The translations under genes were made by a program, and so were the position numbers. Of a stretch of DNA of 31,073 nucleotides, positions 1 to 28,383 are shown piece after piece. Source of the DNA: a virus (Duplodnaviria > Heunggongvirae > Uroviricota > Caudoviricetes); the IMG/VR virus record IMGVR_UViG_2602041669_000008; one strand, 5' to 3'. The first letter of the stretch is position 1; every line of letters begins with the position of its first letter. The notes below the pieces were generated by a model. It made no database searches and was not told the origin of the DNA. It worked only from the letters and a program-made list of their open reading frames with translations.

Positions 1-1005
1 TTCATCATCCAGCACCACTTCTTTCACCGTGAAATACCCCGCGTTGATGTACTGCTGGAACGGCACATTTTTACGTCCACCGGACGCTATCAGGATGCCG
101 TTCTCCCGTAACCAGACAAACAGCGCGTTTTGCTTAAGTCCAACAACCTTTGCAAAATTCCCAATCAGGATCCCTTTAGCTACTGATACCCGGTCGGCAA
201 AATCGACTTTAGGAGCGGCGGCCACCAGCTGCTGATTTAGCTGGTGGGCTTTCTGTTCCAGAAGTTGCTTTTGTTCAGCCAGTTCGGCAGCCAGGCGTAG
301 GGCTTCAGGAAGCGTCTGGGGGATTGCGATCGGTTGCTGTTCTTTTTGTCGGAAGTAGCTGTCTTCCAGTTTTTCAAAGAATGCCCATGCCTGATCGGTT
401 TCGATCATTTTAGCGTGGCGGGCTGCGCCGCGTTCCGTCCAGAGAGTGAGGTTTCTGGCGTTCTTACCAACAGAGTTACTAAAAGTAACTCTGTTCTTAA
501 ATTCCTTTAATTTTGAACCAGTTAAAAGAAAGTAGTGTTTACCTTCTTCAAAGCGATCGGAGTTGCAAGACAAATTTTTACGAATATTGCCTTCATCGGT
601 TCCGTACCCCTTAGCAAGAGTTTCGGTCGTTACGACACGTACTCCCTGCCATTCCAGAACGGGAATTTCATCCGGCTGATTTTGAACAACCACCAGCTCC
701 GATTCCTGAGCTGAAGTTGCATGAATTTTTTCTGATTTAACGTTAGTTGCTTTCATTCTGTGTGCCTCCTTGCGTGCTTCGGCTGCGATGGTTGCGTAAT
801 TCAGATGCCCCTGTTCGAGCAGGTATTCACGGATATCAGACAACAGGATACGGTGAACCGCGTTCTTGTCCTTTCTCCGGTAAAGTTGTTTGGTGATCAT
901 GAAGTAGTTGGCAATAACGCCCGGTATATCCCTGGTACTGATACAGGCGGTATGCTGTTCAATTGCCTCGATCATCTCTTCACGGGTGACTAATGACGTT
1001 CTCAT
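1..1005 (-). CDS. ant: Antirepressor (Ant-type, KilAC-like C-terminal region), 3' end cut by the window edge
   Basis: ATG at 1003-1005 (MRTSLVTREE...) overlaps the stop of the upstream small ORF (ATGA); paralog of the complete 372-aa copy at 7480-8598. Confidence 0.7.
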   Translation of the reverse strand, partial: MRTSLVTREEMIEAIEQHTACISTRDIPGVIANYFMITKQLYRRKDKNAVHRILLSDIREYLLEQGHLNYATIAAEARKEAHRMKATNVKSEKIHATSAQESELVVVQNQPDEIPVLEWQGVRVVTTETLAKGYGTDEGNIRKNLSCNSDRFEEGKHYFLLTGSKLKEFKNRVTFSNSVGKNARNLTLWTERGAARHAKMIETDQAWAFFEKLEDSYFRQKEQQPIAIPQTLPEALRLAAELAEQKQLLEQKAHQLNQQLVAAAPKVDFADRVSVAKGILIGNFAKVVGLKQNALFVWLRENGILIASGGRKNVPFQQYINAGYFTVKEVVLDDE

Positions 1006-1196
1006 AGTCCCTCCTGAGCAGAAGCGTTAACAGGGAGGCACCAGTAACTGAGAGAATTGCGTGAATCAGTGGAAAAACGGGCAGAGAAAATGCAGGGAGC
1101 ATCCGGAAGCTGAGAGCGAGCCTCATCTTCTGTCGGTGCAATAACGAAGTGATAGTGACGTTTCTGGCAGGAGTAAAAGCGCCAGATAAATTCAGG
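1..1196. repeat. Direct repeat copy A (about 1.2 kb) matching 7588-8789; covers the icd-like ORF and the 5' two-thirds of ant; probably continues left of the window
   Basis: Positions 1-460 and 640-1196 align near-identically to 7588-8047 and 8230-8789; the track ORFs 29-235 and 7616-7822 are identical; a ~170-bp central patch is divergent. Confidence 0.85.
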
Positions 1197-1223
1197 GCGT
1201 GCGCAAGGATTGGCATTAACCAT
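1002..1223 (-). CDS. icd: Icd-like small protein (73 aa), translationally coupled to ant
   Basis: Track ORF; GAGG 9 nt upstream of ATG 1223; C-terminal 64 aa identical to the copy at 8595-8816, N-terminal 9 aa differ; size and position match P1 icd (from memory). Confidence 0.5.
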   Translation of the reverse strand: MVNANPCARPEFIWRFYSCQKRHYHFVIAPTEDEARSQLPDAPCIFSARFSTDSRNSLSYWCLPVNASAQEGL

Positions 1224-1382
1224 AGTTACGGCCTCATGTACAGGTTTAACAACCTGCTACCCGCTGCTAAACGGGTGGCAGGGCGTGACGGGGTTAGCAG
1301 ACTGGCGTACATGAAACCAGCAGGCCGAAGCCTCCCCATCACGCCCCACCATAATTTGGGCGTAACGCGGTTTTAGGGACAT

Positions 1383-1530
1383 AAAAATACCGCAATATCG
1401 GAAATCTGCGGTTGTCCGCATGTACATTCAGGCTGCTAAACCCGGTCGCAGAATTTGCTACGACGGCGGAACTATAAGCCTGAACGACAGGAAGATCAAT
1501 AGGGCAGTGTGCAATGGTAGTTTATTTTCC
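1383..1530 (-). ncRNA. Candidate c4-like structured leader/antisense RNA between a C1 operator and icd-like copy A
   Basis: Minus-strand hairpin ACCGCA/UGCGGU (1389-1412) followed by a U-run, about 145 nt downstream of the operator at 1541-1557; no ORF; sequence unrelated to the equivalent region of copy B. Confidence 0.3.
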
Positions 1531-1540
1531 TCAAAAAATC

Positions 1541-1557
1541 AAATCTATTAGAGCAAT
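1541..1557 (-). promoter_or_regulatory. C1 operator-like site (ATTGCTCTAATAGATTT, 16/17 to the consensus ATTGCTCTAATAAATTT as I recall it)
   Basis: Direct read of the minus strand; sits at the head of the icd-like/ant transcription unit. Confidence 0.6.
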
Positions 1558-3490: not shown

Positions 3491-3514
3491 ATTATAGCAA
3501 TCAATTAGAGCAAT
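3491..3514 (-). promoter_or_regulatory. C1 operator-like site (ATTGCTCTAATTGATTG, 14/17) abutting a TATAAT -10 on the minus strand
   Basis: Direct read; -10 TATAAT is plus 3491-3496 reverse-complemented; operator 3498-3514. Confidence 0.55.
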
Positions 3515-3972: not shown

Positions 3973-3989
3973 CAAATAATTAGAGCAAT
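3973..3989 (-). promoter_or_regulatory. C1 operator-like site (ATTGCTCTAATTATTTG, 14/17) between the cre stop and the downstream ORF
   Basis: Direct read. Confidence 0.45.
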
Positions 3990-6020: not shown

Positions 6021-6037
6021 ATTGCTCTAATAAATTA
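6021..6037 (+). promoter_or_regulatory. C1 operator (ATTGCTCTAATAAATTA, 16/17) in the spacer of a TTGACA-N17 promoter upstream of coi-c1
   Basis: TTGACA at 6015-6020 immediately followed by the operator; a weaker operator-like site lies at 5938-5954. Confidence 0.65.
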
Positions 6038-6275: not shown

Positions 6276-6485
6276 ATGGCTTTCATTCAACCAACCATCG
6301 ACGACGTTAGACATTGCTCTAACGCTTTATCTGTAGACCCTGCCGAAACCGACGCTGCCCGCGCCATTGCTGAACACTACTCAAAGATATCCAATCAGGA
6401 GTACCGCATCACCCAAGACGACCTGGATGACCTCACTGACACAATCGAATATCTCATGGCAACTAACCAGTTAGACTCACAATAA
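6276..6485 (+). CDS. coi: Coi-like small protein (69 aa) upstream of c1
   Basis: Track ORF; GAGG 8 nt upstream of the ATG; size and position match P1 Coi (from memory; sequence not verified). Confidence 0.55.
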   Translation: MAFIQPTIDDVRHCSNALSVDPAETDAARAIAEHYSKISNQEYRITQDDLDDLTDTIEYLMATNQLDSQ

Positions 6486-6595
6486 ATGCACTAATAAATC
6501 TATTATTTTTGTTTGATCCCTCTATAATATAGGTCAGTAATGACCGGTTTTCTCAGCCGGGCGTTATTGACCATGTCAATTCTGGAGGAGGATCA

Positions 6596-7447
6596 ATGAT
6601 AAATTATGTCTACGGCGAACAACTGTACCAGGAGTTCGTCAGCTTCAGGGATCTCTTTCTAAAAAAAGCTGTTGCACGCGCCCAACACGTTGATACAGCC
6701 AGCGACGGTCGTCCTGTACGCCCGGTTGTCGTTCTACCGTTCAAAGAAACTGACAGCATTCAGGCTGAAATTGATAAATGGACTTTAATGGCGCGGGAAC
6801 TGGAACAGTACCCAGACCTCAATATCCCAAAGACTATTTTATATCCAGTGCCTAACATCCTTCGCGGTGTGCGCAAGGTTACAACTTATCAGACAGAAGC
6901 TGTGAACAGCGTCAACATGACCGCTGGACGCATTATTCATCTGATTGATAAGGACATTCGCATCCAGAAAAGCGCGGGGATCAATGAGCACAGTGCGAAA
7001 TACATAGAGAACCTGGAAGCAACAAAAGAGCTAATGAAGCAGTACCCGGAGGATGAAAAATTCCGTATGCGTGTACACGGCTTTAGCGAAACAATGCTGC
7101 GCGTCCACTACATTTCCAGTAGCCCTAACTACAATGATGGTAAATCAGTTAGTTACCATGTGCCACTGTGTGGCGTGTTTATCTGCGATGAAACTCTCCG
7201 TGATGGAATTATCATCAACGGTGAATTCGAAAAAGCAAAATTTAGCCTTTATGACTCCATAGAACCGATCATCTGCGACCGCTGGCCGCAAGCAAAAATA
7301 TATCGCCTGGCAGATATTGAAAATGTAAAAAAACAAATTGCCATCACTCGCGAAGAGAAAAAGGTTAAGTCAGCCGCATCAGTTGCGCGCAGCCGTAAAA
7401 CCAAGAAGGGGCAGCCAGTAAACGACAACCCCGAAAGCGCGCAATAA
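6596..7447 (+). CDS. c1: C1 immunity repressor (283 aa)
   Basis: Track ORF with strong RBS GGAGGAGG; length equals P1 C1; sits next to loxP; many cognate operator motifs across the window. Confidence 0.85.
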   Translation: MINYVYGEQLYQEFVSFRDLFLKKAVARAQHVDTASDGRPVRPVVVLPFKETDSIQAEIDKWTLMARELEQYPDLNIPKTILYPVPNILRGVRKVTTYQTEAVNSVNMTAGRIIHLIDKDIRIQKSAGINEHSAKYIENLEATKELMKQYPEDEKFRMRVHGFSETMLRVHYISSSPNYNDGKSVSYHVPLCGVFICDETLRDGIIINGEFEKAKFSLYDSIEPIICDRWPQAKIYRLADIENVKKQIAITREEKKVKSAASVARSRKTKKGQPVNDNPESAQ

Positions 7448-7479: not shown

Positions 7480-8598
7480 TTATTCAGCCGCCACCGGTTT
7501 TAACAAGCCAGCATCGAGCAGTTTACGCGTCAACCACTGCTGGCCTTTACCCGTTAATTGGGGCGTCAGCCGTATCTGGTAGCCATTTTCATCATCCAGC
7601 ACCACTTCTTTCACCGTGAAATACCCCGCGTTGATGTACTGCTGGAACGGCACATTTTTACGTCCACCGGACGCTATCAGGATGCCGTTCTCCCGTAACC
7701 AGACAAACAGCGCGTTTTGCTTAAGTCCAACAACCTTTGCAAAATTCCCAATCAGGATCCCTTTAGCTACTGATACCCGGTCGGCAAAATCGACTTTAGG
7801 AGCGGCGGCCACCAGCTGCTGATTTAGCTGGTGGGCTTTCTGTTCCAGAAGTTGCTTTTGTTCAGCCAGTTCGGCAGCCAGGCGTAGGGCTTCAGGAAGC
7901 GTCTGGGGGATTGCGATCGGTTGCTGTTCTTTTTGTCGGAAGTAGCTGTCTTCCAGTTTTTCAAAGAATGCCCATGCCTGATCGGTTTCGAGCATTTTAG
8001 CGTGGCGGGCTGCGCCGCGTTCTGTCCAGAGGGTGAGTGAGCGAACATTGCGAGCAATTTTTACAGAGTAGTTTAAAGCTACTCTGTGCTTCAACTCGCG
8101 CAATGATTCTCCTTCAACTTTGAAAAAGTGCTTCCCTTCAACAAAGCGTACTTTGTTCTCATGATGATTTTGGCGAATACGGATTGTTTCTGTCCCATAC
8201 CCTCTAGCAAGAGTCTCGGTTGTCACTACACGCACTCCCTGCCATTCCAGAACGGGAATTTCATCAGACTGATTCTGAACAACCACCAGCTCCGATTCCT
8301 GAACTGAAGGTGCATGAATTTTTTCTAATTTAACGTTATTTGCTTTCATTCTGTGTGCCTCCTTGCGTGCTTCGGCTGCGACGGTTGCGTAATTCAGATG
8401 ACCCTGTTCGAGCAGGTATTCACGGATATCAGACAACAGGATACGGTGAACCGCGTTCTTGTCCTTTCTCCGGTAAAGTTGTTTGGTGATCATGAAGTAG
8501 TTGGCAATAACGCCTGGTATATCCCTGGTACTGATACAGGCAGTGTGCTGTTCAATTGCCTCGATAATCTCTTCACGGGTGACTAATGACGTTCTCAT
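7480..8598 (-). CDS. ant: Antirepressor (372 aa; Bro-N/Rha-like N-terminal region, KilAC-type C-terminal domain)
   Basis: Track ORF; C-terminal motif ...VAKGILIGNFAKVVGLKQNALFVWLRENGIL...; start overlaps the icd-like stop (ATGA). Confidence 0.8.
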   Translation of the reverse strand: MRTSLVTREEIIEAIEQHTACISTRDIPGVIANYFMITKQLYRRKDKNAVHRILLSDIREYLLEQGHLNYATVAAEARKEAHRMKANNVKLEKIHAPSVQESELVVVQNQSDEIPVLEWQGVRVVTTETLARGYGTETIRIRQNHHENKVRFVEGKHFFKVEGESLRELKHRVALNYSVKIARNVRSLTLWTERGAARHAKMLETDQAWAFFEKLEDSYFRQKEQQPIAIPQTLPEALRLAAELAEQKQLLEQKAHQLNQQLVAAAPKVDFADRVSVAKGILIGNFAKVVGLKQNALFVWLRENGILIASGGRKNVPFQQYINAGYFTVKEVVLDDENGYQIRLTPQLTGKGQQWLTRKLLDAGLLKPVAAE

Positions 8599-8789
8599 AG
8601 TCCCTCCTGAGCAGAAGCGTTAACAGGGAGGCACCAGTAACTGAGAGAATTGCGTGAATCAGTGGAAAAACGGGCAGAGAAAATACATGGGGCGTCAGGA
8701 AGCTGAGAGCGGGCCTCATCTTCTGTTGGTGCAATAACGAAGTGATAGTGACGTTTTTGGCAGGAGTAAAAGCGCCAGATAAATTCAGG
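7588..8789. repeat. Direct repeat copy B (matches 1-1196)
   Basis: See copy A; divergent patch at about 8047-8225, inside ant. Confidence 0.85.
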
Positions 8790-8816
8790 ATGAGTTGGGG
8801 TAGGGATAGTAGCCAT
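8595..8816 (-). CDS. icd: Icd-like small protein (73 aa), translationally coupled to ant
   Basis: ATG 8814-8816 with AGGAGG 8 nt upstream, in frame with track ORF 8595-9044; MATIPTPTHPEFIWRFYSCQ... Confidence 0.5.
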   Translation of the reverse strand: MATIPTPTHPEFIWRFYSCQKRHYHFVIAPTEDEARSQLPDAPCIFSARFSTDSRNSLSYWCLPVNASAQEGL

Positions 8817-8981
8817 ATTGGCAGCCTCCTTAGACGTTGGTATGTAACCACCGCAGAAGAGACCAATCTTGCTGGCGGTGGACTGTACGGAGTTGGCCTT
8901 ACTGGCGTCCAAGGTAACCAGCCTACCCGAAGGTAGCCCCATACAGCCCACCATTGTAGAGGTGTGCGTGTACGCCGATAC

Positions 8982-9125
8982 AAAAAAAAGACGCGAGCGG
9001 CGTCTGTATCGCCTTAGACTTAAGCGGGAGGCCAATCCCGGCACCCGTTTTAATGAGGTGCCTGATAAGCATAAACCGAAAATGCCTCAAGGCGCAAGAG
9101 GTCAGGCTCAATGTAACATCGGTAG
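8982..9125 (-). ncRNA. Candidate c4-like structured leader/antisense RNA upstream of icd-like copy B
   Basis: Begins just below the operator at 9136-9152; hairpins GGCACC/GGUGCC and CGGGA/UCCCG; ends in stem AGACGC/GCGUCU plus U8 (8982-9005); no ORF. Confidence 0.35.
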
Positions 9126-9135
9126 TTAAAAAACA

Positions 9136-9152
9136 CAATTTATTAGAGCAAA
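9136..9152 (-). promoter_or_regulatory. C1 operator-like site (TTTGCTCTAATAAATTG, 15/17) heading the icd-like/ant unit
   Basis: Direct read; lies immediately after the pacB stop. Confidence 0.6.
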
Positions 9153-9155
9153 TAT

Positions 9156-10640
9156 TCATTCATTAAGCCATGCCAGAGCTTCATCAACCTGCGCTTCGTC
9201 TTCGACGCTAAGCACTTCATCCTGGGGAACATAATCCGCCAGCATAGCGAAACAATATGTATCCCAATGGTCTGGTGAGTGCAGGTTGAGTTTTTTCTTC
9301 ATATCCTCCTTACTCATCACCTTCCATTGACCTGCGGAGTTAATCCCTACAGGGATTTTCGACGCTTCCTCAATAGTTTCATTACCCTTATCCAGTCTCA
9401 TGCGACCAGATTTTACGGCCTCTGCGGCTTGAACGTTGGCATAAGCACGTTTATCAAAGTACAGGCTCTTATCTTCACGGCTATGCATCTTTTTACCCCA
9501 GCGTATACGCTGTACGGTAATACCATAATACTCGTACATCAGATCCGCCGTTGCTTTACCCAGGCCATCGCCGTCTATCGCTATGGTGATATTTGGGAAT
9601 CGCTCAGGATTACATTCTGCGAAAATTTTGGCGGCAAGCTGCGTTTCTGTAACGTCTGTGTATTCCAGCATTCGATAGTTGATTACACGGCGTTTATTTC
9701 GCTGGCCGGACACCATCATGATATTGATAACGGACTTATCCCGTCCCGTACCACCAGCAACGTCCACACATGCAAGCCAGCCCCATCCTTTTGCAATCTT
9801 GACTTTCCGCCGCGTTGCACGTTCAACCTCATCACGTCCAAGAAGGAAGCCATCCTGTGATTTAGGGAATAGGCCGCGTACCTTAATCATGTACATAGGG
9901 TTATCACGCCCGCCGTACTCCGCCAGCTTCATTTTGATAAATGCTGGCGTTACCAACGGTGATTCCTCACTGTTAAGCGTGATCGCCGTATAAACGCCAT
10001 CAGGGTTACCAGGACGCTTGGCCAGTTTATGGTGTGTATCGTAGAAATAGCCGCTTGGGCGTGTAGGCTGTGACAGCAATAAGATGCGGTTATCCTGTCC
10101 GGTAAGAGCACCGGTGATGATACCGAAAGCTCTATCACTGACACCGGAGGCTTCATCGATAATATACAGAAGATGATCTGCGTGTTCACCGGCGAGAGCT
10201 TCTTCACTTCCCAGACGAAAGCCCTTCGGTACTACAGTCCATACACCTTTACCAGTAATCTCATAGAAAGCGGTTTCTGTCAGAACAAAATAATCAGCAA
10301 GCCATGGGAAACGGCTGGTGGCAGTAGCCCAGTTTATCTTGATGTACTTGAATATACCGGTCATTACCTGCTGAATTTTGTTCGCAACGATAATGGCACG
10401 GGCACCTGGATACATGATTATGAACAACATGATCATGATAGAAGTCATGTCTGATTTCCCGGTACCGTGACCAGACGAAACAGATGTCTTGCTACCCTGT
10501 TCCTGCACAGACTCAATAATCAGATCCTGCTGCCAGGTAGGTGTTTTGCCGAACAAAACATCAGCGGCCGCAATCCAGTCATAACGATATAGCGCCACCA
10601 GCTCGCGCCAACGTGGATCCGTTACGCAACTTCTGGCCAT
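9156..10640 (-). CDS. pacB: Terminase (pacase) large subunit PacB (494 aa)
   Basis: Track ORF; Walker A-like GHGTGKS and Walker B-like LLYIIDEA; start overlaps the pacA stop (TAATG). Confidence 0.85.
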
Positions 10641-12442: not shown

Positions 12443-12459
12443 CAATACATTAGAGCAAT
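12443..12459 (-). promoter_or_regulatory. C1 operator-like site (ATTGCTCTAATGTATTG, 14/17) upstream of lpa
   Basis: Direct read; abuts the stop codon of the upstream ORF. Confidence 0.5.
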
Positions 12460-22601: not shown

Positions 22602-22618
22602 AGATTTATTAGAGCAAT
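22602..22618 (-). promoter_or_regulatory. C1 operator-like site (ATTGCTCTAATAAATCT, 16/17)
   Basis: Direct read; overlaps the stop codon of the HAD-like gene. Confidence 0.6.
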
Positions 22619-24693: not shown

Positions 24694-24710
24694 ATTGCTC
24701 TAATAAAAAA
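24694..24710 (+). promoter_or_regulatory. C1 operator-like site (ATTGCTCTAATAAAAAA, 14/17)
   Basis: Direct read; in inverted orientation to the site at 24743-24759. Confidence 0.5.
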
Positions 24711-24742: not shown

Positions 24743-24759
24743 GGAATTATTAGAGCAAT
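24743..24759 (-). promoter_or_regulatory. C1 operator-like site (ATTGCTCTAATAATTCC, 14/17)
   Basis: Direct read; immediately after the stop of the glycosyltransferase-like gene. Confidence 0.45.
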
Positions 24760-28366: not shown

Positions 28367-28383
28367 ATTGCACTAATAATTTT
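28367..28383 (+). promoter_or_regulatory. C1 operator-like site (ATTGCACTAATAATTTT, 15/17) in a divergent promoter region
   Basis: Direct read; a TAGAAT -10-like hexamer follows at about 28421. Confidence 0.5.

Follow-up and report, generated by a model that had tools for sequence, protein, structure and literature searches.

In the bacteriophages P1 and P7, C4 is a stable RNA of approximately 77 nt, which is processed by RNase P from an operon transcript and represses the synthesis of Ant in trans. Citron and Schuster are said to have described, in 1990 and 1992, the immI operon of both phages with the C4 antisense RNA, its a1/b1 and a2/b2 targets, icd and ant1/2. Immunity of the satellite P4 acts through premature transcription termination of replication genes and not through a translational block of icd-ant, but its processed leader RNA, the CI RNA, pairs in the same way as C4 with sites located up- and downstream of itself (seqA and seqC). 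Functionally analogous is also the sar RNA of P22, a small antisense RNA limiting antirepressor (ant) synthesis (review PMC12197685); however, sar is a cis-antisense RNA from the opposite strand and has neither the C4 fold nor the two-site recognition in trans.

A further relative, the isrK locus of Salmonella Gifsy-1, was studied experimentally by Hershko-Shalev et al. (2016; PMC4825925), who found a terminated short IsrK, read-through transcripts and a processed RNA of about 80 nt (STnc1160), and who established the compensatory pairs G28-C162 and G31-C159. These pairs correspond to a1:a' in the nomenclature of P1, in which a' denotes the single-stranded joining region and b' the loop of hairpin 2 of C4. 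IsrK provided in trans activated the translation of the antirepressor more than 100-fold, and both this trans-activation and Hfq binding have been demonstrated for Gifsy-1 IsrK only (PMC4825925). The authors compared IsrK with P4 seqA and STnc1160 with the P4 CI RNA, leaving P1 c4 unnamed, and interpreted their data mainly as a structural switch in cis with a translated 'orf45' and not as sequestration of C4 (Hershko-Shalev et al., 2016; PMC4825925). In the Gifsy-1 type isrK locus (L127, NC_010392, 34131-34329 (-)) we found that isrK overlaps a c4-a1b1 match and that C4 lies directly downstream, with the start of 'orf45' (AUGGUGGGG) at the 5' end of C4. Judged from these sequence matches, the Rfam families isrK and c4-a1b1 seem to be two descriptions of one element. 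In Rfam, C4 and c4-a1b1 share the clan CL00128 and isrK has no clan.

Two immI-type cassettes in the window

The DNA analyzed here (referred to as the window) is a stretch of 31,073 nucleotides from a virus of the Caudoviricetes (IMG/VR record IMGVR_UViG_2602041669_000008). Its first 12 kb have 100% identity to p95JB1A of E. coli 95JB1 (NZ_CP021336.1, 86,922 bp), a P1-like phage-plasmid. Module A is located between pacB (9156-10640) and c1 (6596-7447), and module B between the ref side and the lxc/darB side, which corresponds to the res-mod site in P1; both positions, the pacB-c1 junction and the res-mod site, are known variable hot-spots of P1-like plasmids. Extra icd-ant homologues at these two positions in P1-like plasmids were reported by Venturini et al. 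(2019; PMC6906374), who cited p95JB1A and described the extra copies without mention of any RNA. The RefSeq annotation of p95JB1A contains no ncRNA feature at any C4 or isrK element, and an Rfam scan detects these elements well over threshold. In both modules the order on the minus strand is C1 operator, promoter, a1/b1 leader with a terminator-like hairpin, C4 (a', b'), a2/b2 over the icd Shine-Dalgarno sequence, icd and KilAC antirepressor.

Module A
9136-9152 (-): C1 operator TTTGCTCTAATAAATTG, 15/17 to the P1 C1-operator consensus (2 mismatches), aligning with Op51/Oc4 of P1 and P7
9062-9090 (-): candidate constitutive promoter TTGAGG-17-TATCAG, putative equivalent of P1 P51b, aligning with the P1 P1c4/P51b hexamers
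9068-9073 (-): alternative -10 element TATGCT of this promoter
8982-9061 (-): IsrK-like a1/b1 leader RNA (Rfam isrK match, predicted fold)
9041-9061 (-): leader hairpin 1
9025-9040 (-): leader hairpin 2, with a1 UUGGCCU (9029-9035) in its loop
9012-9019 (-): b1 GUCUAAGG
about 8982-9005 (-): predicted intrinsic terminator of the leader, GC-rich stem 9005-8989 plus T-run (U8), tail to 8982
8877-8952 (-): C4 antisense RNA (Rfam C4), predicted mature length 76 nt
8907-8914 (-): b' CCUUGGAC, loop of hairpin 2
8893-8899 (-): a' AGGCCAA, single-stranded joining region
8825-8866 (-): target leader (a2 and b2)
8860-8866 (-): a2 UUGGUCU
8828-8836 (-): b2 CGUCUAAGG, overlapping the icd Shine-Dalgarno sequence AAGGAGG at 8825-8831
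8595-8816 (-): icd-like gene, 73 aa (NCBIfam phage_ICD_like, 49.8 bits; WP_000201261.1)
7480-8598 (-): antirepressor, 372 aa, ORF6N and KilAC/ANT, start overlapping the icd stop (ATGA)

Module B
1541-1557 (-): C1 operator ATTGCTCTAATAGATTT, 16/17 to the consensus (1 mismatch), aligning with P1/P7 Op51
1471-1499 (-): promoter TTGATC-17-TATAGT (scan 9/12), equivalent to P1 P51b, aligning with the annotated P1c4 promoter of P1
1383-1464 (-): a1/b1 leader (c4-a1b1 and isrK model matches)
1445-1464 (-): leader hairpin 1
1429-1444 (-): leader hairpin 2, with a1 UUAGCAG (1433-1439) in its loop
1419-1426 (-): b1 UGUACAUG
1383-1411 (-): leader hairpin and U-run (UAUUUUU), -8.5 kcal/mol
1274-1350 (-): C4 antisense RNA, 77 nt by homology with P1
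1307-1313 (-): b' CAUGUAC, found in neither P1 nor P7
1294-1300 (-): a' CUGCUAA, as in P7
1232-1270 (-): target leader, at positions homologous to the annotated P1 a2/b2
1264-1270 (-): a2 UUAGCAG
1232-1242 (-): b2 UGUACAUG fused to the Shine-Dalgarno sequence GAGG
1002-1223 (-): icd-like gene, 73 aa (NCBIfam phage_ICD_like, 49.8 bits), 82% identity to P1 Icd
1-1005 (-): antirepressor (KilAC), running off the window start (WP_021351710.1, 370 aa in the full plasmid)

Modules A and B each represent a complete control cassette of the immI type, and C4 control combined with an IsrK-like or a1/b1 leader is in our view the best explanation for them, with a probability of roughly 85%. Observed here were the covariance-model membership, the fold, four complementary sites per module, the operator, the gene context, the covariation and the predicted orthogonality of the pairing sites.

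The order of parts is that of immI in P1 and P7 (Op51, P51a/b, a1, b1, c4, a2, b2, icd, ant; RefSeq NC_005856; C4 is Rfam RF01695), and the recognition at two sites by a' and b' is likewise shared, b2 being located at the icd Shine-Dalgarno sequence. Module B has approximately 83% identity to P1/P7 immI and aligns base for base with the annotated P1 sequence from Op51 to icd. However, it is found at the res-mod position and not upstream of kilA-repL, and it combines the a-site of P7 (UUAGCAG) with the b-site GUACAUG, in contrast to GUUAGUG in P1 and GAUUGUG in P7. In module A the parts follow one another in the same order, but the scaffold differs (C4 identity 58%) and the a site and the b site are both new. 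Its leader shares three hairpins including the putative terminator with the Gifsy-1 locus isrK - orf45/STnc1160 - anrP (Rfam RF01394), followed in the same manner by C4 and an antirepressor, and the ORF overlapping C4 has the same double AUG in both. In contrast to Gifsy-1, module A contains icd between C4 and the antirepressor, is placed under a P1 C1 operator and has different a/b sequences, and any IsrK-like activity of its leader would be by homology. Cassettes of Stx-converting lambdoid phages show approximately 80% identity to module A. The antirepressors, which have 89% identity to each other, differ more strongly from Ant1 of P1 and P7 (only 55-60% identity); that of module A, with 57% identity to P1 Ant1, matches Pfam ANT with 107 bits and ORF6N with 69.8 bits.

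Both C1 operators had already been placed at 9136-9152 and 1541-1557 by the initial annotation, and they were recovered on the minus strand with 2 and 1 mismatches, respectively. In the window 11 C1-operator matches with up to 3 mismatches were found, compared to 0.18 expected. The nine additional operator-like sites (1-3 mismatches) are located at 3498-3514, 3973-3989, 6021-6037, 6485-6501, 12443-12459, 22602-22618, 24694-24710, 24743-24759 and 28367-28383; many such sites across the window are expected of a P1-like genome. A consensus promoter scan made no call in module A, where the candidate is a weak match below the threshold, and we infer from the sequence alignment that it is equivalent to P1 P51b.

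The C4 RNAs and their predicted targets

Four matches in total were obtained when the window was scanned with Rfam at gathering thresholds. C4 (RF01695; gathering score 45 bits) was detected in module A at 8871-8958(-) with 75.9 bits and in module B at 1271-1356(-) with 72.1 bits, in both cases over model positions 1-87 of 87. A C4-family RNA ahead of each icd-like gene, in a layout similar to P1 immI, had been anticipated by the initial annotation, which had named an Rfam C4 search among its checks, and both scores are far above the gathering score. The minimum free energy folds of the two RNAs have the same architecture as C4 of P1 and P7, namely a long closing stem in which the 5' end pairs with the 3' end, a hairpin with a tetraloop, another hairpin presenting b' in its loop and the single-stranded a' joining region. 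Compensatory changes were present at 12 of the 27 C4 pairs (alignment fold, 5 homologues), and outside a'/b' the C4 scaffold of module B is almost identical to the annotated 77-nt c4 of P1 and P7. The genomic context is that of C4 in both modules, with icd and an antirepressor downstream and a C1 operator upstream.

In addition to the fold, the interaction prediction that had been suggested along with it gave cognate duplexes with the icd leaders. For module A the predicted energies were -8.6 kcal/mol at a2 and -11.3 kcal/mol at b2, compared to -1.9 to -5.1 kcal/mol for its C4 on a2/b2 of the other modules, and for module B they were -8.5 and -10.4 kcal/mol at a2 and b2, respectively. The a1/b1 sites of both modules are predicted to pair with the adjacent C4 at -7.4 to -11.3 kcal/mol. 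Overall, the cognate a'/b' duplexes ranged from -7.2 to -11.3 kcal/mol, whereas the non-cognate ones were mostly weaker than -5 kcal/mol, and the match observed at all four sites jointly was reached in 0 of 2000 shuffles. Duplex energies were more informative than a contiguous-pairing score with G-U allowed, which separated cognate from non-cognate pairs poorly (non-cognate maximum 7.5). The proposed pairing of GGCCAA (8893-8898) with a UUGGCC loop proved correct and represents a':a1 (loop a1 at 9029-9035). Since the a/b sequences differ among modules A and B and a third module, module C, which is located outside the window on the same plasmid, each C4 should mainly control its own antirepressor, and the modules should form heteroimmune channels like those of P1 versus P7. 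Some cross-talk is predicted for the C4 of module C on a1, b1 and b2 of module A (three of four sites), with -6.4 to -7.2 kcal/mol versus -8.6 to -11.3 kcal/mol for the cognate pairs.

Between modules A and B, Icd is the same except for residues 1-9, in agreement with the earlier remark that the icd-like ORFs vary at their RBS-proximal 5' end. The suggestion that this variable N-terminus reflects antisense specificity was not upheld, because modules A and C have an identical Icd although their a/b specificities differ, and because b2 lies upstream of the start codon. The Icd N-terminus was rejected as a specificity determinant; the first 9 codons track the lineage of the RNA scaffold and not the a/b alleles. 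The Icd start reads MVNANPCAR in P1-scaffold cassettes and MATIPTPTH in cassettes with an IsrK-type scaffold. The variable RNA cassette gives way to the conserved icd-ant part about 27 nt inside icd (8790-8816; 1197-1223), and this internal position suggests that cassettes are exchanged by recombination within icd.

A third module and natural variants

Module C comprises a C1 operator, an isrK-like element, C4, icd and ant (L005 37067-38726; NZ_CP021336.1 about 74066-75725) and occupies the canonical immI site, upstream of ant-kilA-repL. It was matched by the isrK and C4 models with 58.5 and 76.7 bits, respectively, and its specificity is of a third kind, with a' UUCCAA and b' CCUUUUGC. A scan of genome contigs for the pattern CCGGGATTGGNNNCCCG returned chance matches only, in unrelated bacteria.

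An Icd protein search of viral contigs (IMG/VR) yielded 80 loci, 78 of which have C4 immediately upstream of icd; in the other two, one was cut by the contig end and one had its RNA cassette deleted. The 84 modules compared (78 from IMG/VR and six references, namely P1, P7, Gifsy-1 and the three modules of p95JB1A) fall on three scaffolds and display 13 a'/b' combinations, to which 6 a and 9 b alleles contribute. The variation is found mainly in these two kinds of site, whose alleles reassort. Each of a1, a2, b1 and b2 is complementary to the C4 of its own module, and this holds for all 84 modules. This three-way covariation with C4 provides strong comparative evidence for a function of the poorly understood upstream a1/b1 sites in addition to a2/b2. 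Wherever two or more modules were captured in a genome or contig, the co-resident modules differ in b' (8 of 8).

Two individual cases deserve description. The 42-kb contig IMGVR_UViG_2698536372_000019 carries three C4-icd modules (L134, L200, L206), a fourth is located on a second contig of the same genome (L192), and the a'/b' combinations of these four modules are all different. In IMGVR_UViG_2609459791_000005 (L178, about 560-930) the operator, the leader and C4 are deleted and a coding-looking sequence is joined to the b2/Shine-Dalgarno-icd part, which would leave icd-ant without a cis-encoded C4.

The RNA family, its targets and the principle of heteroimmunity are classical, extra icd-ant genes were known from the literature, and the pair of isrK and C4 is annotated in some Stx-phage records. 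New relative to the literature that we found are the a/b alleles of these modules, three predicted-orthogonal C4 channels on one plasmid and the combinatorial survey of alleles.

The a1/b1 leader and its possible functions

The operator-proximal RNA of module A matched isrK (RF01394; gathering score 50) at 8984-9061(-) with 60.8 bits and c4-a1b1 (RF03163; gathering score 46.7) with 20.5 bits (E=0.005), which is below the gathering score of the latter model. The module B leader matched c4-a1b1 at 1425-1477(-) with 55.5 bits, above the gathering score, and isrK at 1383-1464 with 46.4 bits, slightly short of it. The two RNA regions had been described as unrelated, which was fair by eye given their low identity of 45-49% (shuffled maximum 44%), but the isrK and c4-a1b1 models each match both, and in terms of these covariance models the operator-proximal regions of the two modules belong to one kind of element. 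The stem and U-run at 8982-9005 was indeed called terminator-like by the scan, and the one near 1383 was found as the hairpin 1383-1411 (-8.5 kcal/mol) followed by UAUUUUU, which a simple terminator scan of module B did not call; its loop is longer than 8 nt. The candidate promoter of module A and the putative terminator of module B are placed by homology with the P1 annotation and by alignment to the isrK model. Contrary to the initial annotation the operator-proximal stretch is not free of ORFs, as the mechanically called ORFs 8595-9044(-) and 8923-9159(-) overlap with it, but it contains no credible gene. About 150 nt separate the hairpins from the RBS, consistent with the leader of approximately 160 nt that had been proposed ahead of the icd RBS.

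By homology with P1 and P7, for which this mode of repression is established, C4 would be excised from the operon transcript, and pairing of its a' and b' with a2 and b2 would block the translation of icd, to which the KilAC antirepressor is presumably coupled translationally; the antirepressor would then not be made and the prophage would stay repressed by C1. The leader, with a1/b1 in the same sense as a2/b2, would bind C4 and not the mRNA. By analogy with Gifsy-1 IsrK, the short terminated leader RNA would serve as an anti-antisense decoy that relieves repression, with read-through transcripts supplying C4 and mRNA. Most likely, the leader of module A binds C4 as a decoy or attenuator and is not an antisense repressor, and the same may be assumed, less surely, for the P1-type leader of module B.

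Alternatively, the leader might act mainly in cis, as an attenuator following the P4 CI RNA/seqA paradigm, in which C4 bound to nascent a1/b1 would promote termination at the adjacent hairpin. In line with such a role, a terminator-like hairpin is located directly downstream of a1/b1 in every scaffold, a1/b1 covary with C4 as strictly as a2/b2, and the likening of IsrK to seqA and of STnc1160 to the CI RNA by the IsrK authors points in the same direction. Attenuation would give a negative feedback on C4 together with a second lock on icd-ant. We regard it as less likely than not that attenuation in cis predominates over a decoy function in trans, since Gifsy-1 IsrK acts strongly when provided in trans and constitutive expression of STnc1160/orf45 did not offset IsrK toxicity. 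The two functions are not mutually exclusive.

The C4 segment of module A is overlapped by an ORF (8841-8954 (-)) that starts at AUGGUGGG (8954) in frame with icd (mechanical ORF 8595-9044) and is the counterpart of 'orf45' in the work on Gifsy-1 IsrK. In the RefSeq record a pseudo 'ash family protein' CDS lies on this C4 gene, and the equivalent ORF of module C (L005 37279-37398 (+)) matches Pfam Phage_ASH (PF10554) with 33 bits. These features, along with the detection of tagged orf45 in Salmonella, would also fit the view that the C4 segment of IsrK-type modules functions through a small protein ('Ash family'/orf45) and that the RNA match is secondary. However, such a reading is improbable, because by sequence reading the frame running through C4 ends early in modules of the P1 type (module B and P1 itself among them), because natural a'/b' swaps cause radical residue changes (such as Cys to Asp or Ser to Leu) with the complementarity to four RNA sites being kept, and because the IsrK paper found conservation of orf45 at the nucleotide and not at the amino-acid level. 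Since natural a'/b' swaps alter the amino acids so radically, the Pfam Phage_ASH family may largely represent the translation of C4-type RNA genes.

It is even less probable that modules A and B are decaying immI duplicates with no present function. Their location at variable hot-spots of P1-like plasmids could be explained in this way, but icd and ant are intact, the modules retain their operator, C4 fold and all four pairing sites, the arrangement of modules A and B is shared by 206 plasmids (at least 80% coverage of the 12-kb query), and the RNA cassette of module A is of one a'/b' type in 26 of 26 independent contigs.

Finally, the placement of c4 in the initial annotation, according to which the operator-proximal RNA of approximately 145 nt (8982-9135; 1383-1540) is itself the c4-like repressor and the next 160 nt or so its icd leader target, is hardly credible and was rejected, since this structured RNA with a stem and U-run at its end and a UUGGCC loop complementary to the downstream GGCCAA belongs to isrK/c4-a1b1, the homologous P1 positions are annotated as a1/b1 targets, the C4 model and the P1 annotation put the true C4 (8877-8952; 1274-1350) downstream of a1/b1 within the proposed 'leader', and the exposed a1/b1, having the same sense as a2/b2, would pair with C4 and not with the RBS region, so that this RNA cannot be the antisense of a2/b2. 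Of the Op-c4-icd-ant anatomy originally proposed, the layout and a specificity difference similar to that between P1 and P7 remain valid, but c4 and leader had been assigned the wrong way round.

With C4-controlled immI-type cassettes as the preferred reading, a more general proposal can be made, to which we would give somewhat less than an even chance: P1-like phage-plasmids would harbor as many as three or four co-resident C4-icd-ant cassettes with a two-part code (at least 6 a and at least 9 b alleles) that is reassorted by recombination and orthogonal within a genome, and the a1/b1 leader, equivalent to IsrK, would be a general anti-antisense switch of the whole RNA family including classical P1. 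If true, the extra cassettes may enable the resident to silence the antirepressors of a wider set of related incoming phages. The presence of three predicted C4-controlled antirepressor channels on one plasmid bears on superinfection immunity and on cross-talk during induction among the P1-like plasmids so common in pathogenic E. coli, and the strict covariation of a1/b1 with C4 among the 84 modules connects classical P1 immunity with the IsrK switch investigated experimentally in Salmonella. Modules A-C leave the known principle of C4 control unchanged. For annotation, it is of relevance that the p95JB1A RefSeq record lacks RNAs at these sites and has one C4 gene covered by the pseudo "ash family protein" CDS. 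Beyond the window, the plasmid also gave Rfam matches to the sok antitoxin RNA (84.9 bits) and the IS009 RNA (192.4 bits), at L005 40875-41049 and 22743-22941, respectively.
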